From contig NZ_JALHLX010000004.1 in NCBI RefSeq assembly GCF_022844385.1, positions 14,832 through 78,831 of the forward strand: a stretch of 64,000 nucleotides of DNA. Direction: 5' to 3'. Under the pieces are notes generated by a model. It worked only from the letters and a program-made list of their open reading frames with translations, ran no database searches and was not told the origin of the DNA. Within the stretch, counting starts at the first letter, position 1. Each line of letters begins with the position of its first letter. This document shows, in pieces, positions 36,355-45,222 of the stretch. The stretch comes from Hydrogenophaga sp. (lineage in GTDB: Bacteria > Pseudomonadota > Gammaproteobacteria > Burkholderiales > Burkholderiaceae_C). The translations under genes were made by a program, and so were the position numbers.

Positions 36355-36630
36355 TTACCGGCCAGCGCGGCGGGACTGCCCTACTTCCTTACGATATCGC
36401 AGCGCCATCGCCTGCGTAAGTTCAACGACATCCACCTCGAGTGCTTCCGCAAGCCGAAAAAACACGGCAAGTGAGGGCTGGGTCTCAGCGATCTCCAGCC
36501 GAGCCACAAACGAGCGATGTACTCCCGCCCGGTGAGCGAGTTCTTCCTGACTGATTTTCAAGCTGGCGCGGCGTGACTTGATCTCTGCCGCAGCAGCACG
36601 GAGGACCGGTAGGTCCTGAGCTTTTCGCAT
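36355..36630 (-). CDS. XRE family HTH transcriptional regulator
   Basis: RRASLKISQEELAHRAGVHRSFVARLEIAETQPSL. Confidence 0.85.
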   Translation of the reverse strand: MRKAQDLPVLRAAAAEIKSRRASLKISQEELAHRAGVHRSFVARLEIAETQPSLAVFFRLAEALEVDVVELTQAMALRYRKEVGQSRRAGR

Positions 36631-36666
36631 GCCCCGCACTGTGGGCAGACTGGCTCATTTATGCAC

Positions 36667-36690
36667 CTGCATATATGGTACAAAATGCAG
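36667..36690. promoter_or_regulatory. Inverted repeat CTGCAT-N12-ATGCAG in an AT-rich divergent promoter region
   Basis: Lies between the XRE gene and the four-gene operon; candidate XRE operator. Confidence 0.45.
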
Positions 36691-36754
36691 ATCAACATAC
36701 CGATTGAGTGCTCTTCTAGGGAGTACGACCCAAGGCACTACCCACAGGAAGCCG

Positions 36755-37174
36755 ATGCATTTGCAAGCCTTGCGCCCGAAACAAGGGACCAGCCTCCTAC
36801 AACTTCACAATCTGTTGGACGGCAGGGGATGGAGATCGGCCATGCCGACGTCTCTGCCCGACACCGTGCTGCTTCGCCTTGCACTGGACTTTCGATGTGT
36901 CGAGGCTGGCTCGGGCACACTTGAATCCGGGACGAAGGACGAAGAGCCCTCGCTTACCGCCGCCTTGTATGTCGTCATGAACCTACTAATGCAACACCCT
37001 GATAGCGCCGGAGACAAGAGCGAACTGCAGATATCGGACGCGGGATTGATGCGTGCCTTCCAGATCTACCAGGTGGGCCTTGAACGCGAAATCGTGACCC
37101 GTATCACCGGGCTTTCGACCTCCACATCGCCGGACGCCCTCGCCGAAGAAATGTTGCGGTGCGCGGATGAGTGA
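36755..37174 (+). CDS. Hypothetical protein
   Basis: ATG after CAGGAAG; first gene of a tightly packed four-gene run. Confidence 0.55.
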   Translation: MHLQALRPKQGTSLLQLHNLLDGRGWRSAMPTSLPDTVLLRLALDFRCVEAGSGTLESGTKDEEPSLTAALYVVMNLLMQHPDSAGDKSELQISDAGLMRAFQIYQVGLEREIVTRITGLSTSTSPDALAEEMLRCADE

Positions 37175-37469
37175 AACGGCTGACGACCGGGTCCTGTGGA
37201 CTGCGTGGTGCGACTATTCCGCCACTGGCGAGGGGCGCTCAATCATGGCGTGCATTGCATACGCTCGCACTGGCGACGAGATGCGTGCCCACTTCACCGA
37301 GAAAATCGGCGACTGGTTCGCCAAAGGCTGTGAGGTCCAAAATGGCGTGGTACGAAACGAAATCAGCCGGTTCATCTGGCGCGAGGCGATGCTCGATGCG
37401 GTCGAAGGTTGCGGAAAGCGGCGCGTCTGGGTCGATGCGAATTCGCGGATGCACTTCAATCTCTCCTGA
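37167..37469 (+). CDS. Hypothetical protein
   Basis: The start overlaps the upstream stop; WCDYSATGEGRS motif of unknown meaning. Confidence 0.6.
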   Translation: MSETADDRVLWTAWCDYSATGEGRSIMACIAYARTGDEMRAHFTEKIGDWFAKGCEVQNGVVRNEISRFIWREAMLDAVEGCGKRRVWVDANSRMHFNLS

Positions 37470-37472
37470 ACT

Positions 37473-37823
37473 GTGAATATGTACATACTCGTTCGCGACG
37501 ATGTACCGCTGGGATATGCCATGGTGGCCGTTGCGCACGCGTCACTGGCTGGATATCTGACGTTTCAGCACACGCCAGAGGTACGTGAGTGGCTGAACGG
37601 ACCGTTCTTCAAGGCAGTTTGCAAGGCAAACGCCAAGGAGTTCGAGAACGCGAAGCAGGTTGCAGACCACGTCGTTCTCACCGAATCGGCCCTCGACAAT
37701 CAAGAGGTTGCAATCGTGTACAAGCCGCGAGCCCATTGGCCGAAGATGTTCAAATTTTTGAGGCTGTACCGTGACTCCGCGAGCATGCCGCGTTCGCCCC
37801 AGGGCCCCGCGCCCCGGGCTTGA
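37473..37823 (+). CDS. Divergent peptidyl-tRNA hydrolase 2 (Pth2)-like protein
   Basis: MYILVRDDVPLG...VAHASL, W-x6-KAVCK and ESALDNQEVAIVYKP follow the Pth2 motif order, although the canonical GK and DAGxT are altered. Confidence 0.6.
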   Translation: MNMYILVRDDVPLGYAMVAVAHASLAGYLTFQHTPEVREWLNGPFFKAVCKANAKEFENAKQVADHVVLTESALDNQEVAIVYKPRAHWPKMFKFLRLYRDSASMPRSPQGPAPRA

Positions 37824-38368
37824 AGCGGCTGCCCAAGCTTGGTTCGATCCAAGGCGTTGCCGCCCATCGTATCGATGCCGGAGCGCCGAAAGCTATCGCG
37901 GCCAAGGTGGCAAGCATCGCGATGGTCGCGCAACGCGAGATCGAAGGTCCAACTGGCGTCGACGGCGACGGGCGGCCCGAGCAGCAGCTGTACGTGCTGG
38001 CGGACGCTGGACGTTGCATTGCCATGGTGTTCATCGGCCAGACCGACTATGTCTGGCACCTCGCATGGAACGATGCGAAGCCGGGCGGCGTAGAGCTGCG
38101 GCCAGAGCATGCCACCATGCGTGCCCACCCTGTGATCGCACGCGTATGGGTTGCCGCCAACTACAGGCAACGCGCAATTGCACAAGAGCTCGTGGACCTG
38201 GCGGTAGGCCATTCTGGGTTGGACCGCCAGGCTCTGTGGTGGGAGTTGCCCTTCACCATAGGTGGCAATTCGCGCGTGCGCAAGATCTCACCCGCCGCCT
38301 TCCTGGGTTCCTGCGACCCGGCAGAGATGGGCGAAATCCTTGCCGGCAAAGCGCGCGCGGAGGTCTGA
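37820..38368 (+). CDS. GNAT acetyltransferase with an Eco1/ESCO-like C-terminal motif
   Basis: IARVWVAANYRQRAIAQELVDLA (acetyl-CoA motif A) followed by PFTIGG; the TTG start overlaps the Pth2-like stop. Confidence 0.6.
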   Translation: MKRLPKLGSIQGVAAHRIDAGAPKAIAAKVASIAMVAQREIEGPTGVDGDGRPEQQLYVLADAGRCIAMVFIGQTDYVWHLAWNDAKPGGVELRPEHATMRAHPVIARVWVAANYRQRAIAQELVDLAVGHSGLDRQALWWELPFTIGGNSRVRKISPAAFLGSCDPAEMGEILAGKARAEV

Positions 38369-39730
38369 AAGGCCGGACGGAGGCCAAGCACTGCCGGCGG
38401 CCAGATTCGGCATCGGATCGAGCGCGTCGAGAACACTGCCACCGCCCTGCTCCAACTTGGACGGCAACAACCGGTCCCCATACCGCCGAATCAGCCGTAA
38501 GGCGCCTGCAAGGCTCATGCGACACCGAAACTCCGTCATCGCCTCGCCCCCCACCTCGACGTGCCGCCATGGCGCTGAGAAGGCAGCCGGTTCGAATTGT
38601 TCATTCCAAGGCACTTCCTCGATCCAGCGCAAGGATCGGATGCGCAGCAGGTTGAGCGCGAAGAGCTTGTACACTTGGTAGCGCGCCGCATAGGCTGCGC
38701 CCGCCGCGTCCTGAGGAAGCCACTGCACGAAGGTGGGCAGCGAGGATCCGAGCCACAAGTGGCCTCGCTCCCAAATCTCCTTGGGCCTGCCCAACTGCAC
38801 CGCCGTGCGCGCCAATGCGACCGCCGTCAGGTGCATGGGACGGGTGATCCGCACCCCTCCGCCATGCGCGTGGTTCAGCTCCGGCAGTAACGAACAGGAA
38901 CCCCCAACCGCTTCGATTTGCTCTTGCAGTTGCCAGACTGCCTGCGCGCGTTCATTGACGGCGAGTTCGTGCCGCTCGGCGTACTTCAGCGTCGCTCCGA
39001 ATCGGGGGGTCAGACTCTCGGAGATCATGCGCAATGCCGTTCCGCGATGGAGCGGCCAGGATCGGTGCAGCCCGATCGAGACGCGATGGATGCGCAGGGC
39101 TTCGTGGCGGTACCTGGCGGCCGGGTGATCCAGCCTGAAAAAGTTGCACGCCTGTGCCCGCGGTAGCAGCGCGTCATACAAGCGTTGGAAGGCCTCGGGC
39201 TGCTCGACCCCCTGGGACAAGCAGCTCTCCAGGCTCCCGGTCAGCACGAAGGGGTAGCCGCACGACCAGCAGAAGTTGTGGTGTTCCAAGAACGAGTTGG
39301 TGCTGGTCGGAATGGGACTTCCACACTCGATGCAGCCCACACGCAGTCCGCATCCGTGCACAGGGCACGCGCCTACCGAGAGGTGCTGAAACATCGCCGT
39401 GTGCCAACCCTGGGAGAGGCAGTCTTGGCAATACCGAAACTCGCCGACCAGGATGTGGCCGGCTTCTACGTCGCCCAGGAGCGACGCGCCCACGCTGTCG
39501 CGCCAGAACCGACTCGGAAACCCGAAGGCATGCCCATGGGCTTCCCGATAGCTTTCGATGTGGAAGACGTTGTGGTCGTTGCGGCGAACTGAACCTTGAA
39601 TCCGGCGCCCGTCTGCGAAGGTCCATGCGTGGCGGTGGGCCAGCGCCGTCAGCAGCATCACGGCCGACGGAGTGGCGCCGCCGACGCCACGCTGCCCGAG
39701 CTGCTCCACGATGGCATTACCGAGCGACAT
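38288..39730 (-). CDS. tniQ: TniQ/TnsD-like target-selector protein (480 aa)
   Basis: FRYCQDCL...FQHLSVGACPVHGCGL...CIECG...FCWSCG zinc-finger array typical of TniQ; last gene of the transposition operon. Confidence 0.75.
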   Translation of the reverse strand: MSLGNAIVEQLGQRGVGGATPSAVMLLTALAHRHAWTFADGRRIQGSVRRNDHNVFHIESYREAHGHAFGFPSRFWRDSVGASLLGDVEAGHILVGEFRYCQDCLSQGWHTAMFQHLSVGACPVHGCGLRVGCIECGSPIPTSTNSFLEHHNFCWSCGYPFVLTGSLESCLSQGVEQPEAFQRLYDALLPRAQACNFFRLDHPAARYRHEALRIHRVSIGLHRSWPLHRGTALRMISESLTPRFGATLKYAERHELAVNERAQAVWQLQEQIEAVGGSCSLLPELNHAHGGGVRITRPMHLTAVALARTAVQLGRPKEIWERGHLWLGSSLPTFVQWLPQDAAGAAYAARYQVYKLFALNLLRIRSLRWIEEVPWNEQFEPAAFSAPWRHVEVGGEAMTEFRCRMSLAGALRLIRRYGDRLLPSKLEQGGGSVLDALDPMPNLAAGSAWPPSGLSDLRARFAGKDFAHLCRVAGTQEGGG

Positions 39731-40661
39731 AGTGACGCAGCACCCTGTGCAGACCGGCCTTCTTCATCGCAGCCTTCGCCCTCGCCGCGTCGATCACGCT
39801 CTGCGGGTCGGCGGCCAGGTGGAGGAACATCGAATTCAACGCTGGGCGCAAGTAAGCAAAGGGAAGCCGGACCGCGGTGGCGGTGAGGTTGTCATCGGTC
39901 AAGAGGGAGGTGACGGCCTCCTCAATGGACCGCGCCAATTCGGTGATTGACCAGCCTTGCCGAGCCCGATCCGGAAAGTGGCGGGTGGTAAATTCCAGAC
40001 CTTCTCCCTCCATGTTCGTCAGGAGCGCCGCGATGTCTTCGATAGTCAGCCCGTGGTAGATCTCCATGCCCTGGAAGAACCTGCCGATCGTTTGCAGGTA
40101 GTTGTTCTGGAAGGCCAGGTCGATGGTGGCTTTCATCTCCGGCTGACCGATGGACAGCATGTGGGGCACGAACCCTGCCCTGCGCAAGTCCGATGCAAGA
40201 CTCATGAACACCGGGTACAGCTCGTGCGGGATGTTCTGCAGATCGTCGATGATCAGAACCACCCGCTTGACGCGCAGCGCCCTGCACCTGGCAACAATCA
40301 TACCGAGCACGCGGCTATAGATCGTCACCAGATCCCGACCCGCAGCAGCGGTGCTGTCCAGGCAAAGAAGGCACCTCCTGAGCACAGCCTCCGGCGTCTT
40401 CGGCTTCATGAGCAGGAACTCGAAGATGAAAGCCGCCGTGGCGGGTAGCATCGCCGGGAGGACTTGCTCGATGTACTTGGCAAATTCGCTCTTGCCCACG
40501 CGCTGGATGCCCCAGATGTGCCCACCTTCCAGCTCGCACTCCACCCAGTCGGCCACCACGATGGCTTTGCGTTCGATCTCGGGCGTCCAGATGGGCCGGT
40601 TCGGAAAGAAGCCACCCCTTTCGTCCGTGTTGGATGACAGGTTTAGGTGGTCGCTCATCAC
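39717..40661 (-). CDS. tnsC: TnsC/TniB-like AAA+ ATPase
   Basis: Walker A GIQRVGKS, Walker B VLIIDDLQN, SIGQPE, IGRF. Confidence 0.75.
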   Translation of the reverse strand: MMSDHLNLSSNTDERGGFFPNRPIWTPEIERKAIVVADWVECELEGGHIWGIQRVGKSEFAKYIEQVLPAMLPATAAFIFEFLLMKPKTPEAVLRRCLLCLDSTAAAGRDLVTIYSRVLGMIVARCRALRVKRVVLIIDDLQNIPHELYPVFMSLASDLRRAGFVPHMLSIGQPEMKATIDLAFQNNYLQTIGRFFQGMEIYHGLTIEDIAALLTNMEGEGLEFTTRHFPDRARQGWSITELARSIEEAVTSLLTDDNLTATAVRLPFAYLRPALNSMFLHLAADPQSVIDAARAKAAMKKAGLHRVLRHYVAR

Positions 40662-42736
40662 AACTTCCTGGGCACGACAAAGCGGCGTACCAGCGCGGTT
40701 GGCACCTCGGGAGCAACAGCAGGGGTGGCAGCCGGCCGAAGGGGCGGCACGTTCGAGGAGAAGTCCTCAGGCAACGGCTGGCCATCCACCTGCAGGGGCG
40801 GCGGCAGAGGCAACCGATCGGGGACCATGACTGCATCGACGTCCAGAAACTCGTCGCCGGCTCCCACGGCAAGGACCTGATCCTGGATCGCCTCGGATGG
40901 CAACTGGCGCTTGAGGTAGCGCATGATGTAGGCGTACTCCAGAGCCGCTTGACTGTCATGCTTGGCGCGTTCGGCCAGGTGGCGCAGAACGCCAAAGAGT
41001 GGGGAGTCACCGGGTCGAGACCGGTAACGCGCGTCTGAACGGTTCTTGCTGATGATCTCCAGCATCCGCTGGTCGTGCGGCACGTTTGCCATGGGGCCCT
41101 CGCACGTGACGACGTTGAAGGTCGCGAATGACTGGTCCACCAGTTCCAGGGTGCGCAGGTCCTCGTAGTCGTACATAGCAAAGAGCTTCTTGCCGCCCAG
41201 GCCGGGCTGGACCTTCAGCCATGGGGACGCATAGCGGCGCTGCTTGTAGAGTACGAAGTTGCCGCGGTTGTCCTTGAGATCGCAGTGCACTGTGACCGGC
41301 CAGGGTTCGCAGAAGTTGTGCGGTTTGCGACGGATCTCTGGCAGGTAGTTGCACTTGATCTTGTCGGTCAGCACCAGGCGCGCCAACCGCGTGAAGGAGT
41401 CCAGGTAGCCCGCTCCGGAACTCTCCATCACGTTCTGGTTGGCGAAATAGACGTCCAGCGCCTGCTCCAAGAGCCCGATTTGCACGCGCTTGCCCACCGG
41501 GATCGCGGCCCGCTCGCGCACGGGATCCTGCGGTCCCGTGCCCGTGGTCCCCGGCAACTGGTGGACCAGAGCGCGCACCAGGTGGCCGAACGAGCTTTCG
41601 ATGTCGGGACGGCCCTTCGGCCGCCCCGGTATGCCGAGCAACACCCGCCCACCGAAGAGTCGCTGCAAAAGGGTTTGCAGCGGGTTGAACAGGTGCGACA
41701 GCGCGTTATCCAAATAGACCAGGATCGGCACCGCATAGCGAAGCGGCTCGAACACGTTCTGCGGGAAACCTGCGCCCTTTTCGTACTGAATGGTGGCCTC
41801 CACGCAGTCGACGGCCGGTTGACCAAGGACCGCGTTTCGGAACAGTCGGATGATGTCGGACCCGGCCGCCTGCTGCCGCAGGCACATGTGCCAGGCGATG
41901 TTGCAAGCGACGTTGCCAATCGAGCGGCAGCGCAGGACCTGGAATTGGCTGAGCGCCACGAACTCGACGTCCCAGCGCGCCATCGGTAGCTCAATCACCG
42001 CTTCCAGGTCGACCTTCATCTCGTCGATCACCCATACGGTGTAGGGCATGGGTGGCGTGCGCGAGGTTCCATCCCCCAACTCGTAGAGCGCGGCCACGGC
42101 CGCAGCCGATCCGTGCTGCTTTTCGATGTGGCGGCGGCGGTTCTCGAACTGGTACACCTTCTCGTACCAGCCTTGCAAGGGCTCATAGCCCTTGCCCTTG
42201 GTATTGAGCGGGTAGTCGGTGGCGCACAGGCCCTCGTCCTTGCAGATCTCGATAAACTTGGCGTGCATGAGATGGGGCGTCACCGTGTTAGGACGCTCCT
42301 TGCCGTTAAGGAACTCGGTCAGGCGCCGGAAAATTTCCGGGCGATCCTTTACGAGCTTCTTGAAAAGGCCGGCGTAGCCGCCGAACTTGCTGGTCTTGCC
42401 GGCCGGAACCTTGCGTTCGCGTGCTGCCTGCACCCGGTTGCGAACGAACGCGCGGGTTCCGCAGATCTGGTCGGTCCCGGCCTGCGCGCCGAGCGCGCGC
42501 ACCATAAGATGGAAGAACTGCGTCTCGCTCAAACCGGCAAGCTTTTTGACCTCGCGGAAGGGCGCCTGATTGAGAAACGCCGTGGCTGCCCTGGTCAAGG
42601 CGATAAGGCGCGCCCTCTTCTTGAGGTCCGGCACGGTGTTGGGATCGACTGCCGGCCAGTTGGAGATGTCTCGCCACTGCGGGGGGATCGCGAGGTAGAA
42701 GGCCGCTCTTCGCAGCTCCTTGCGCGCCTCGATCAT
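40658..42736 (-). CDS. tnsB: TnsB/TniA-like DDE transposase (692 aa)
   Basis: WVIDEMKVD (D1), YLDNALSH (D2), PKGRPDIESSF (E, 37 residues after D2); coupled to both neighbours. Confidence 0.8.
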   Translation of the reverse strand: MIEARKELRRAAFYLAIPPQWRDISNWPAVDPNTVPDLKKRARLIALTRAATAFLNQAPFREVKKLAGLSETQFFHLMVRALGAQAGTDQICGTRAFVRNRVQAARERKVPAGKTSKFGGYAGLFKKLVKDRPEIFRRLTEFLNGKERPNTVTPHLMHAKFIEICKDEGLCATDYPLNTKGKGYEPLQGWYEKVYQFENRRRHIEKQHGSAAAVAALYELGDGTSRTPPMPYTVWVIDEMKVDLEAVIELPMARWDVEFVALSQFQVLRCRSIGNVACNIAWHMCLRQQAAGSDIIRLFRNAVLGQPAVDCVEATIQYEKGAGFPQNVFEPLRYAVPILVYLDNALSHLFNPLQTLLQRLFGGRVLLGIPGRPKGRPDIESSFGHLVRALVHQLPGTTGTGPQDPVRERAAIPVGKRVQIGLLEQALDVYFANQNVMESSGAGYLDSFTRLARLVLTDKIKCNYLPEIRRKPHNFCEPWPVTVHCDLKDNRGNFVLYKQRRYASPWLKVQPGLGGKKLFAMYDYEDLRTLELVDQSFATFNVVTCEGPMANVPHDQRMLEIISKNRSDARYRSRPGDSPLFGVLRHLAERAKHDSQAALEYAYIMRYLKRQLPSEAIQDQVLAVGAGDEFLDVDAVMVPDRLPLPPPLQVDGQPLPEDFSSNVPPLRPAATPAVAPEVPTALVRRFVVPRKL

Positions 42737-43569
42737 TGCAGCACCTCCTGCGGGCGCAGCACGCGGTAGTTGTCCTGCGACAGGTCCAGGCGCAGCAGGC
42801 CGTGGCAGTGCATCCAGGCCAAGCGCGCATCAGCCAGTTGCGGTGACACACCCAGGGCCGTCACCAAGCGGCCACGGTCGGTGTCTCCGCAGGCATCCAG
42901 CGCCGAGGCGATCCGCACATCGAGCTCGAGCCCTTCGTCTTCATGGATCGCGCCGGCCTGACGCAGCAGTTCCATGCGCCAGAAGACGTCCACGTTGGAG
43001 CGCACTTGCGCGAAGGTGGTCACCACGACCTGCGCATCAAGCGCGCGGCCAACGCGCTTGAGTGTGTTGATCCGAGAGCGAGAGCATTCTTCTGTCTTGC
43101 AAACCAGATGCAGGCGGCTTGCGCCGGTTCTGCGGCTGGTGACGACGAAGGTGGCGACGGCCTCGCAGGTCTGCCCCTCCACCTCGGCGACAACCGGCGC
43201 CGCCTTCACGGTGATTGCGGTTGTGTCCGGATCGAACCGTACGTGCAACCAGCCCTCGTATTCGTAGGCGTGAGCGAACTGCACGTGCTGTCGGGAAATC
43301 GGGTCGTAGCAGCGACTGACTGCGCCACGAAATTCGGCATAACGCCCAGTGCGTCCGCCCCAGCGGGTAAAGTCTTTCATGGTGTGTAGGTCTCGAAGAC
43401 CCATGGAGGCGGCCACCGCATGCGCGGGCCAGAGCCACAGGGATTTCTTCAGATGGCGCCGCTGATGCGGTACCACGCGCTTGAGGGATCGCGTCCTCGA
43501 TCCCAGGCCGCCCCGTTTAAGGCACGGCCTGACCTCAGGGCTTGACAGCCCAGCCATTTGCGCCGACAC
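42733..43569 (-). CDS. tnsA: TnsA-like endonuclease
   Basis: QFAHAYEYEGWLHVRFDPD resembles the TnsA N-terminal ES-x-E...DP segment; C-terminal winged-helix-like LAWMHCHGLLRLDL; ATGA-coupled to the transposase. The start may be 43404 or 43380. Confidence 0.55.
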   Translation of the reverse strand: MSAQMAGLSSPEVRPCLKRGGLGSRTRSLKRVVPHQRRHLKKSLWLWPAHAVAASMGLRDLHTMKDFTRWGGRTGRYAEFRGAVSRCYDPISRQHVQFAHAYEYEGWLHVRFDPDTTAITVKAAPVVAEVEGQTCEAVATFVVTSRRTGASRLHLVCKTEECSRSRINTLKRVGRALDAQVVVTTFAQVRSNVDVFWRMELLRQAGAIHEDEGLELDVRIASALDACGDTDRGRLVTALGVSPQLADARLAWMHCHGLLRLDLSQDNYRVLRPQEVLQ

Positions 43570-43680
43570 TGCTGCTCAAGGTTCCCCAACCTGAGAGCAG
43601 TGACGACGCCGCCCAGCTTGCTGTGCGGCGTTTTCCATTTTGGGTGGTCTACGGACGGTGTTTCGGTTCTTTGCTCGTCG

Positions 43681-43947
43681 CTAGTCCTTTCCGGGCGACT
43701 CGCCCGCAGCCCGGACCGGTCCCAGCTTCGCCAGGATGCCGGCCCTCCAGTTGCGCACTTCGCTGGCGCTCGCGAACCACCCGCGGCGCCCCTCAATCTT
43801 CACCAGCATGATTGGCAGGCGGCCACCGCGAGCCGCCGCGCGAAATGCTTCTCCCGTACGAAAGCCCAGCGCCTCGCGCAACGCGGCGCCTCCGAGGAGT
43901 TCCTCTTCGTCCAGAGTCTGAGCGTACAGGCCGACTTTTGGCATCAT
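43681..43947 (-). CDS. Small putative DNA-binding (AlpA/excisionase-like) protein
   Basis: 88 aa, ALREALGFRTGEAFRAAARGGRLPI...RRGWFASASEV; leads the transposition operon. Confidence 0.55.
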   Translation of the reverse strand: MMPKVGLYAQTLDEEELLGGAALREALGFRTGEAFRAAARGGRLPIMLVKIEGRRGWFASASEVRNWRAGILAKLGPVRAAGESPGKD

Positions 43948-44012
43948 TCATCCAACTACCGTCAAGTTGCGCAGGTTACGAATCGAGCGACGACTCCGTC
44001 TAGCGTTGAGGC

Positions 44013-44055
44013 AGTAATTCAATTCAGCAGTAAAACTTGTTTAGTAATTCATTTC
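44013..44055 (+). repeat. Direct repeat AGTAATTCA(A/T)TTC, two copies 30 nt apart
   Basis: 44013-44025 AGTAATTCAATTC and 44043-44055 AGTAATTCATTTC (12/13 identical) in an AT-rich divergent promoter gap. Confidence 0.6.
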
Positions 44056-44891
44056 TGCGCGCAGTTCCAGCCGAACGCGTGATCGACTTGGTCCCGCGGT
44101 CCTCTCTTTGGGCGAAGCCGACGATGTATCGGGCGCAAAGAGCGATCCAGCGCTGGAAGACGAAGGCGGTGCTTCAGGCACTGTTGGACGAGACCGGCGC
44201 CTCGGGACCCTACGACCTCGAATCCAAGCTGATCGAGGCCTACGGGGATGCCCTAGGGCCCCGGTGCAGTGCCTTCGACCGGATGAAAAAACTTGGGCAG
44301 CCGGATGTCGAGAAGAATTTGTCGCGGCTTGCACGGGACCCAGCCAATGCCTCCAGGTGGATGTACCACGCAACCCTCTATGCGCCCGAAGCGCTCGCTG
44401 TGTTGCGGGAGGTAGTCTGGCGATTGCTCGACCCGACGCCCATCGGATATGTCGAGTTGTCAGACCTGTACGAGCGCCGCTATCCGACGTGGGAGGTGCC
44501 ACGCGGCATCAAGGTCGTGCTCGACGATCTGGAAGGATTCCCAGACTATGAATGGGTACATGTCAGGACCGGAGCTCTAAAGCAAAGGCGGGGCCTGACG
44601 GACGCGCTGTATGCCATGCGCAGCGCTGAACTACGGGGCAAGGAACGCGAGTACCACCTGCATCTATTGGGTGCGATGGAGCGACTCGCGAGCAAAGAAT
44701 TGGACCCTGATTTGCAACTACTGGGGGTTGAGTGTTGTGACTACTTGGCGACTTGCTTCGGCCGCATTGAGGTCCCGCAATCGGTCCGCCGGGACAAGGT
44801 GATGGAACTTCGTCTAGGGCTTTCCGCTTACCTGGGCGCCGATCCGTTTGGTGTTATTACGGGCGGCGAACTCGAGTGGTGTCCGCGTTGA
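44037..44891 (+). CDS. Hypothetical protein, divergent from the transposition operon
   Basis: 284-codon ORF; the true start is more likely GTG 44079 or ATG 44124. No family recognised. Confidence 0.6.
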   Translation: MFSNSFLRAVPAERVIDLVPRSSLWAKPTMYRAQRAIQRWKTKAVLQALLDETGASGPYDLESKLIEAYGDALGPRCSAFDRMKKLGQPDVEKNLSRLARDPANASRWMYHATLYAPEALAVLREVVWRLLDPTPIGYVELSDLYERRYPTWEVPRGIKVVLDDLEGFPDYEWVHVRTGALKQRRGLTDALYAMRSAELRGKEREYHLHLLGAMERLASKELDPDLQLLGVECCDYLATCFGRIEVPQSVRRDKVMELRLGLSAYLGADPFGVITGGELEWCPR

Positions 44892-45222
44892 TCCGCTGAG
44901 GTGTGGGATCGGCAGGATCGTTGGAACAATGAGCCTATCCGGCGCGATCCCCTGCAACTGACCCTTAATGGATTCGAGCACGGCGAATAGACCTAGTAGG
45001 ATTCATGGGCCAATTTGCGCGTACTCGGTCAAAATGCTTTTGAATTCAGCATCTTAGATGACCTGGGTTGTCCCACCTCTGTCACCCGCCTTATGGAGGC
45101 ACTGCCTCCTTGCTATGCGGGGAAACACCAGCAGCCCGATTTCGGTGCACCCCAGAGCGTCAACCTACAATTCACACGCTTGTCTCAACCCGTTCGGCGG
45201 ACCATTTGACCGCTACTGAAAG

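Follow-up and report, generated by a model that had tools for sequence, protein, structure and literature searches.

A divergent Tn7-like transposon probably carrying a metal-stress island of about 60 kb or more at a tctA-linked site in Hydrogenophaga

The window analyzed here is a stretch of 64,000 nucleotides from a metagenome-assembled genome (MAG) of Hydrogenophaga sp., located on contig NZ_JALHLX010000004.1, hereafter contig C4. Positions 38288-45084 very probably comprise the transposition module and the right end of a divergent Tn7-like transposon of about 60 kb or more, which encodes a TnsA-fold protein (A), a TnsB-type transposase (B), a TnsC-type adaptor (C) and a single target selector (Q), and which has two definable ends, a 5-bp target duplication and an insertion site marked by a conserved 21-bp motif. 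The element displays every structural hallmark of Tn7-like transposons except the catalytic motif of TnsA. The module consists of five closely packed open reading frames (ORFs) on the minus strand, from position 43947 to 38288, in the order orf88-A-B-C-Q. These ORFs and the features of the right boundary are:

43681-43947, minus strand: orf88, 88 amino acids, upstream of A; an AlpA/excisionase-like helix-turn-helix (HTH) protein was suspected from the sequence alone
42733-43380, minus strand: A, TnsA-fold protein, 215 amino acids, with a nuclease-like N-terminal domain and a winged-helix C-terminal domain
40658-42736, minus strand: B, TnsB/MuA/TniA-type DDE transposase as assigned through its homologs, 692 amino acids
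39717-40661, minus strand: C, TnsC/TniB-type AAA+ ATPase, 314 amino acids
38288-39730, minus strand: Q, TniQ-family target selector, 480 amino acids, with TniQ-like residues 1-190 and two zinc ribbons
44765-45084, minus strand: right transposon end, placed by the boundary common to three elements and the break in synteny
about 45024-45037 and 45005-45018: putative transposase-binding motifs [AT]TT[GA][AG]CC in the right end
45085-45089, no strand: right-hand copy of the 5-bp target-site duplication CCCGC, placed by the empty allele and the left and right junctions

According to their coordinates, the ORFs of A and B and those of B and C overlap by 4 bp and those of C and Q by 14 bp, in agreement with a first-pass annotation of the sequence, which had described tnsA-, tnsB-, tnsC- and tniQ-like genes chained by overlaps. 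The GC content at third codon positions of the module (0.76-0.83) is the same as in the neighboring genes. Direct scans with Pfam and NCBIfam left A, B, Q and orf88 unmatched and gave only a sub-threshold match to AAA_22 for C. Searches of the PDB with the single sequences of A, B, C and Q returned nothing except a faint TniQ match for Q, and no match was obtained in PDB profile searches with the B and A families. The module family is too divergent for current hidden Markov model (HMM) libraries, and the annotation had rightly called the element highly divergent, given that none of A, B and Q has a direct Pfam or NCBIfam match. Genes in the order A-B-C-Q are found at about 17 loci of the Burkholderiales, in Hydrogenophaga, Roseateles, Pelomonas, Polaromonas, Rhodoferax, Ralstonia, Caenimonas and some MAGs. 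The tns ORFs are intact in all copies, and the protein identity between copies is 77-92%.

The gene identities proposed earlier were upheld for all four proteins by fold, profile or transitive Pfam evidence. In B, residues D238, D343 and E380 are invariant in alignments of 22 and 55 sequences. This protein has 40 close clusters in a set of 5.8 billion proteins, most of them without a name, and a profile search recovered 1551 clusters in a library at 50% identity. The 55 clear homologs, defined by a profile search at E <= 1e-65, included matches to the Pfam domains Mu-transpos_C (18 homologs, best 1.8e-7), rve_3 (seven) and rve (six), and it is by way of these homologs, transitively, that B is classified as a TnsB/MuA/TniA-type DDE transposase. 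In C, the Walker A (G51..G56-K57-S58) and Walker B (D139) motifs are conserved. The best matches of the C family profile in the PDB were to VchTnsC (2.4e-4, 1.4e-3), and in Pfam all 20 family members matched AAA_22 and three of the 20 matched TniB.

Eight zinc ligands are invariant in Q (C101, C104, C122, H125, C133, C136, C154 and C157), in the TniQ pattern CCCH plus CCCC. The Pfam domain TniQ was found in five of 15 relatives (best 1.1e-5), and the Q profile matched TniQ and TnsD chains in the PDB with E-values of 0.009-0.07. The AlphaFold (AF2) model of Q has a mean predicted local distance difference test score (pLDDT) of 69, and its top fold matches were to TniQ of the PseCAST QCascade complex (9gs9), with a probability of 0.97-0.98 over 200 columns. 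Residues 240-430, approximately, form a fold of moderate confidence without any match, as anticipated in the annotation, which had noted a long C-terminal region that could not be assigned; residues 429-480 were modeled with low confidence (pLDDT <50).

The open frame of A spans 42733-43569 and encodes 278 amino acids. We used Met64 as the start, which yields a protein of 215 residues (42733-43380), because the upstream part contains stop codons in a sister element and because the relatives begin at this position. The AF2 model has a pLDDT of 88 and a predicted template modeling score (pTM) of 0.85. In the fold search, the only PDB matches at E <= 0.001 were chains A and B of Tn7 TnsA (1t0f), both full-length alignments of 214-219 columns with a probability of 1.0. 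The HMM and structure searches that the annotation had suggested as a check of its reading thereby recovered both the TnsA and the TniQ fold.

The catalytic residues of Tn7 TnsA, which we take to be E63, D114, Q130 and K132, would have their equivalents in E42, T77, V93 and K95 of A, as judged from family alignments A3 and A12. T77 and K95 were mapped to D114 and K132 because their spacing of 18 residues equals that in Tn7 TnsA, and the active-site mapping as a whole is a tentative one. E42 is the acidic residue of the first helix and is kept in the family alignments. All members of the Hydrogenophaga/Roseateles clade have Thr77 at the position of the Asp in the "PD" motif, while other clades retain the Asp and lose the Lys, and no catalytic column is invariant across 21 sequences. 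The DDE triad, the Walker motifs and the zinc ligands are intact, as the annotation had noted, whereas the canonical TnsA catalytic motif is absent from A. Whether A is catalytically inactive is, on this sequence evidence, close to an even call, and an alternative active site, for example one including the invariant D26, may exist.

The right terminus is located at position 45084 of the window and reads inward as TGACAGAGG... (5'-TGACAGAGGTGGGACAACCCAGGTC). Sister elements in L020 (Hydrogenophaga sp. XSHU_21) and L021 (MAG CS4-C022), in which B is about 92% identical, share with the window a stretch of DNA that starts at 45084/45085 and extends to 38108 in L020 and to 37779 in L021, and all three right ends begin within 1 bp of each other at TGAC[A/G]GAG[G/C]TGGGACA. 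Element-free Hydrogenophaga genomes (G443, G058, G454 and G420) align to the window only from positions 45082-45104 rightward. On the other side of the site, these genomes have the gene for a TctA transporter (Pfam TctA, 2e-161), which in this MAG is found on a separate contig, C139, and is broken off 181 bp before its stop codon. Since the start common to the three elements coincides with the break in synteny to the empty-site genomes, we consider 45084 to be the true insertion boundary. A compact 7-kb element that ends just after Q was also considered and rejected, as the homology between the three elements continues into a convergent GNAT gene and no end-like sequence was seen.

The left end, TGGCAGACC..., is absent from this assembly and was recovered from public metagenome contigs and from two other element-bearing genomes, G460 and G461. 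No inverted copy of the right terminus was found in the window, contig C4, the 22-kb relative loci or whole genomes, and the left and right termini have only TGRCAGA in common. We compared Logan contigs of public metagenomes that contain the right junction (activated carbon 2015, drinking water 2024) to the empty site in G443. One contig continues C139 exactly, leading from the tctA terminator through the conserved motif into sequence missing from the MAG. A 30-mer from this contig retrieved the metagenome contig L068 (LNFM01099086.1), which was used to place the junction. The 30-mer that follows the tctA flank was rejected as a transposon end; it represents diverged intergenic DNA, and the true junction lies further on. 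In contig L068, the left end is located 10 bp further to the right than in the unitigs; it was not counted as a separate insertion, no matching right junction being present in four runs.

With a slash marking the boundary, the left junction of this strain reads ...GCATCACCCCGC / TGGCAGACC, or at greater length ...GCTTGCATCACCCCGC / TGGCAGACCAGCCTCAACTTCCG... (runs X1, X3, X5 and X6). This MAG and the genomes G443, G058 and G418 lack the 92 bp past this junction, which are found once in each of the two other element-bearing genomes, with 80% and 78% identity, and nowhere without tns genes. In the near-complete genome G460 (Hydrogenophaga sp. XSHU_21), the left end is present on the same contig as the right end and in inverse orientation, giving an element of 63.8 kb (C1:1356418-1420206). 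A walk from the core of the G460 element through 55 kb of cargo did not reach core DNA. Similarity between the left ends of G460 and G461 extends over 254 bp, which include an internal repeat of about 77 bp, before different cargo begins. Both ends of the element begin with 5'-TG and contain multiple internal, putative transposase-binding repeats. The WTTGRCC-type motif [AT]TT[GA][AG]CC is present four times per left end and two to three times per right end, as compared to an expectation of 0.17 per 320 bp, which corresponds to an enrichment of about 12- to 24-fold over background.

At the right junction in the window, ...CTCTGTCA / CCCGCCTTATGG, the flank starts with CCCGC-CTTATGG, and the left flank of this strain ends with ...CATCAC-CCCGC. 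The empty allele in run X7, ...GCTTGCATCAC-CCCGC-CTTATGGAGGCACTG (...GCATCAC-CCCGC-CTTATGG), contains a single pentamer. In G461, the left flank ends with ...GGC-CTGAG and the right flank starts with CTGAG-CATCGG. Thus, both ends could be defined and a 5-bp duplication was recovered in two genomes, as the annotation had expected from a comparison with empty-site genomes. Because the pentamers match across about 60 kb and the empty allele is available, both ends can be ascribed to one transposition event. Run X7, which belongs to the same activated-carbon study as the runs with the left junction, contains the empty allele as well as the right junction of the element, and gain or loss of the element may have been recent in the activated-carbon population.

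The DNA downstream of tctA forms the left flank in each of the three genomes, and the insertion site is located between tctA and an operon for an amino-acid ATP-binding cassette (ABC) transporter. The region contains a conserved motif of 21 bp, TTCYACGATGTATATTATGTA, which can be written as TTC[C/T]ACGATGTATATTATGTA. The distance from this motif to the left end, the duplicated pentamer included, is 48 bp in G460, 53 bp in G461 and 61 bp in this strain, which is within the range between selector site and insertion in other Tn7-like systems. The left end faces the motif in all three insertions, which have the same orientation, and the DNA between the motif and the left end (45-60 bp) is unrelated in the three genomes. 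The right flanks also differ: the element is followed by the upstream region of the ABC operon in this strain, by the DNA 40 bp upstream of a P-type ATPase gene in G461 and by the 3' end of a response-regulator gene in G460. The 21-mer is present exactly once in eight of the 10 Hydrogenophaga genomes searched, at the tctA locus wherever it was mapped (at least seven of the eight), and is missing only from this MAG, in which the region is unassembled, and from the fragmented genome G418.

The element itself is carried by three of 130 Hydrogenophaga species. Since the pentamers and flanks differ and the empty allele co-occurs, we infer that there were three independent insertions, specific in both site and orientation. 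The annotation had postulated an attachment site other than glmS, which is now placed between tctA and the ABC operon at a distance of 48-61 bp from the motif; mapping of homologous elements gave the same tctA-linked site reproducibly and not random positions. Neither Rfam nor promoter scans of the empty site identified the motif. A phage-type DUF3653/HTH protein is encoded by a segment of about 1 kb between tctA and the motif (L068, 190-1180), whose flanking 19-bp direct repeats, GACATTCCACGATGTATAT, overlap with the motif; comparable 1-kb segments are present in G460 (L071, about 1380-2340) and G461 (L072). A second small integrating element thus appears to use the same motif.

The DNA to the left of the module consists of cargo:

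1-38287, no strand: cargo, without a syntenic counterpart in element-free Hydrogenophaga and continuing at least 14.8 kb past the left edge of the window

Over the 59.9 kb that contig C4 covers to the left of the right end, the left end is not reached, and the size of the element is therefore about 60 kb or more. As the left end lies beside tctA and is not reached within this contig, positions 1-45084 of the window are located wholly inside the element. Only scattered matches at the level of single modules were found in element-free relatives, such as the Cus operon, which is 90% identical to copies elsewhere in their chromosomes. According to Pfam, the cargo includes a Cus-type resistance-nodulation-division (RND) efflux system, a response regulator and two MerR-family regulators, as well as a pyridine-nucleotide disulfide oxidoreductase and redox proteins of the peroxiredoxin and other types; genes for a molybdopterin oxidoreductase, an old-yellow-enzyme protein, a glutathione S-transferase and a TetR protein were identified further to the left. 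The sister elements contain other metal genes (P-type ATPase, Cus, RND), the order of which is rearranged. The suggestion in the annotation that the element delivered part or all of the metal-stress cargo can be extended to the whole island, that is, to window positions 1-45084 and about 60 kb or more in total.

No Cas or TnsE genes were found among the approximately 40 cargo ORFs scanned with Pfam, which represent part of the cargo ORFs, and the scanned ORFs contained no phage structural genes; neither a serine resolvase nor a res site was seen beside Q. A tyrosine-recombinase fragment with a Phage_integrase match is located at the contig edge, 14 kb to the left of the window (C4:120-596, L067). 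A similar stretch of DNA, with about 73% identity, is present in G460 at approximately 49.7-50.0 kb, and in Ralstonia relatives (L033/L035, about 14.3-15.25 kb) the gene directly after Q, on the opposite strand, is tyrosine-recombinase-like by eye. The recurring tyrosine recombinase could be a cointegrate resolvase or a co-selector.

Following the Tn7 paradigm, Q would read the 21-bp motif or adjoining DNA and recruit C, and a C oligomer on the target DNA would set the distance and polarity of insertion. C would then activate B, which would bind the WTTGRCC repeats, pair the ends and join them to the target with a 5-bp stagger. With a Thr in place of the catalytic Asp in A, the 5' strands may stay uncut. 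TnsA-mutant Tn7 and the type V-K CRISPR-associated transposons (CASTs) transpose replicatively, forming cointegrates. Uncut 5' strands might likewise cause this element to move replicatively through a cointegrate, which is the least certain step of the scheme and about equally likely to be right or wrong; the cointegrate would be resolved by host recombination (RecA) or by the tyrosine recombinase in the cargo.

Several observations weigh against the interpretation of the island as a Tn7-like transposon with a specific target site. The distance between motif and insertion varies by 13 bp, which is looser than for Tn7 and TnsD, and the presumed recognition site lies next to the end distal to the tns genes, while Tn7 and CASTs have the opposite end polarity. 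The classification of B is based on its homologs and not on a fold of its own. The left junction of this genome lies outside its assembly and was rebuilt from short Logan contigs of mixed-strain metagenomes, in which the depths of the left (14-117) and right (29-224) junctions are in rough agreement only. Moreover, runs X1, X3 and X5 contain, at substantial depth, a second junction in which this left end adjoins an unrelated sequence (TTCATGCTCAATGTCGTTCTGCTGTTGCCAGAGG / TGGCAGACC); targeting is therefore not exclusive, and a copy is present elsewhere or in another organism in the same samples. Finally, G460 has no matching pentamers (CCAGG to the left versus GTCCC to the right). Its Cus operon has the opposite orientation to that in the window, and its right flank, which encodes an RND pump and a two-component system, is unique to that genome, so that it was unusable as a probe for the empty site. 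The missing duplication in G460 is likely due to a rearrangement after insertion.

We considered whether the island could have been moved by other means. If it were an integrase-driven genomic island or an integrative and conjugative element, with the 21-bp motif as attB, the Tn7-like module would be a passenger or a fossil. The tyrosine-recombinase fragment at the far left of contig C4, the similar DNA in G460 and the look-alike gene beside Q in Ralstonia fit such a scheme, as does the 1-kb DUF3653/HTH element with 19-bp direct repeats that is inserted in the same motif. However, both boundaries of the island consist of Tn7-like ends with a 5-bp duplication and no long att repeat, the left-end sequence is found solely where tns genes occur, and the tns ORFs are intact with 77-92% protein identity, and we consider integrase-driven movement improbable. 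A single ancient insertion that was inherited vertically, with no targeting and possibly an immobile element, would account for the presence of three copies at the same locus and for a DNA identity of the elements (85-89%) that resembles the values for the flanking core genes (82-91%). Against this speak the restriction of the element to three of 130 species, the unrelated DNA between motif and left end, the different pentamers (CCCGC versus CTGAG) and right flanks, and an empty allele with the same flanks in a related sample from the same study, all of which make common descent from one insertion very improbable.

A further alternative is that the element belongs to the Tn5053/Tn402 type (TniA-TniB-TniQ, the "res hunters") or is a Mu-like transposable prophage. 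Relatives of B match Mu-transpos_C and some relatives of C match TniB, but these domains are common to all three groups; A may also be catalytically dead, which would lead to Tn5053-like chemistry. Yet a TnsA-fold gene precedes B throughout the family, the scanned ORFs included neither phage structural genes nor a serine resolvase beside Q, where a res site was likewise not seen, and the target is a chromosomal intergenic motif and not a resolution site. An origin from either of these groups is thus exceedingly improbable, and a divergent Tn7-like transposon is the reading that we retain. A more far-reaching version of it is a Burkholderiales lineage of Tn7-like elements in which a dead TnsA serves as a structural subunit, metal-stress islands of at least 60 kb move replicatively, and the element homes to a motif that is read by the C-terminal half of Q, with a polarity opposite to that of Tn7 and CASTs. 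Taken together, this combination is tentative and rather unlikely to be right in full.

We also compared the element to previously described systems. The similarities to Tn7 are the gene order of TnsA-fold protein, DDE transposase, AAA+ adaptor and TniQ/TnsD-family selector, the ends that start with TG and contain several internal repeats, the 5-bp target duplication, the site- and orientation-specific insertion tens of bp from a conserved sequence, and the location of the cargo between the selector gene and the far end. In contrast to Tn7, A, B and Q have no direct HMM match, there is a single selector without TnsE or a second TniQ, TnsA lacks the catalytic Asp, the size is about 60 kb and the insertion distance is variable (48-61 bp). 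Also, the target of Tn7 is attTn7 downstream of glmS, whereas that of the present element is a non-coding 21-bp motif, which is faced by the end far from the tns genes. If A is inactive, B alone would cut and cointegrates would be expected, as for type V-K CASTs and TnsA-mutant Tn7. Unlike the type V-K CASTs, the element has kept a conserved TnsA-fold protein, and no Cas domains were found among the scanned ORFs.

The Tn6230 and Tn6022 families use the yhiN and comM sites. These and similar Tn7-like elements carry large heavy-metal cargo and form chromosomal islands at a fixed site (PMC8649781, PMC11014353), and both heavy-metal cargo and new attachment sites are common in Tn7-like elements (PMC8649781). 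The present element shares with Tn6230 and Tn6022 the large heavy-metal-detoxification cargo and the fixed-site chromosomal location, but those elements match the standard models for TnsA, TnsB and TniQ, and the one described here is mainly found in Burkholderiales at a tctA-linked site. In a limited search, covering a survey of Tn7-like target selectors, a cargo survey and a paper on Acinetobacter islands, there was no mention of the tctA-linked site or of this lineage.

The Tn5053/Tn402 family, which is not known to contain a TnsA-like gene, resembles the present element in its metal-responsive cargo in Burkholderiales, the TniQ-dependent targeting and the 5-bp duplication, and includes Tn6048 of Cupriavidus metallidurans. 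The latter contains the resolvase gene tniR and was inserted between parB and parC of plasmid RP4 (PMC11952213, PMC4914505). Differences to this family are the TnsA-fold gene, the lack of a resolvase beside Q and the chromosomal intergenic target. Because a TnsA-fold gene is present and no tniR was seen among the ORFs scanned next to Q, the element is not of the Tn5053 type, and Tn6048, a Tn5053-type element with tniR, was rejected as a named relative.

Distant relatives of the module, with 22-27% identity in B, were observed on 93 plasmid records, for example NZ_CP076063.1 (118294-120929, L065). The hosts include Burkholderia, Paraburkholderia, Cupriavidus, Bacillus (26 records) and Klebsiella grimontii, and the proteins are labeled only as "hypothetical", "DDE-type integrase" or "ATP-binding protein". 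On the Cupriavidus plasmid, the module adjoins a Shedu defense gene.

Two further genes and one operon are associated with the module. The small protein encoded by orf88 is kept in L001, L020 and L021 and has no Pfam match even at E 0.5. Within the right end lies a gene on the opposite strand:

44037-44891, plus strand: orf284, 284 amino acids, within the right end and on the strand opposite to the module

Its product has 75-78% identity (tblastn) in L020 and L021, is kept only in these closest sister elements and has no Pfam match. At the other side of the module, a four-gene operon on the plus strand (36629-38368), which ends in Pth2-like and GNAT-like genes according to weak Pfam matches, is convergent with Q and covers its last 80 bp. 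Because its 3' part is kept in both sister elements, the operon seems to travel with the transposition module. The minus-strand ORF at 37700-38212 is probably a shadow ORF.

The element offers an explanation for the arrival of an island of about 60 kb with genes for metal, metalloid and oxidative stress in Hydrogenophaga from drinking water and activated carbon. It also indicates that surveys based on standard HMMs can overlook a sizeable part of the Tn7 superfamily, the B profile alone recovering 1551 clusters at 50% identity. The 21-bp motif, the two ends of about 250-320 bp and the four proteins provide a defined target for further work. If A is indeed inactive and yet retained, the element would be a natural case for studies of a non-catalytic role of TnsA and might yield a compact, protein-guided system for the insertion of very large cargo.

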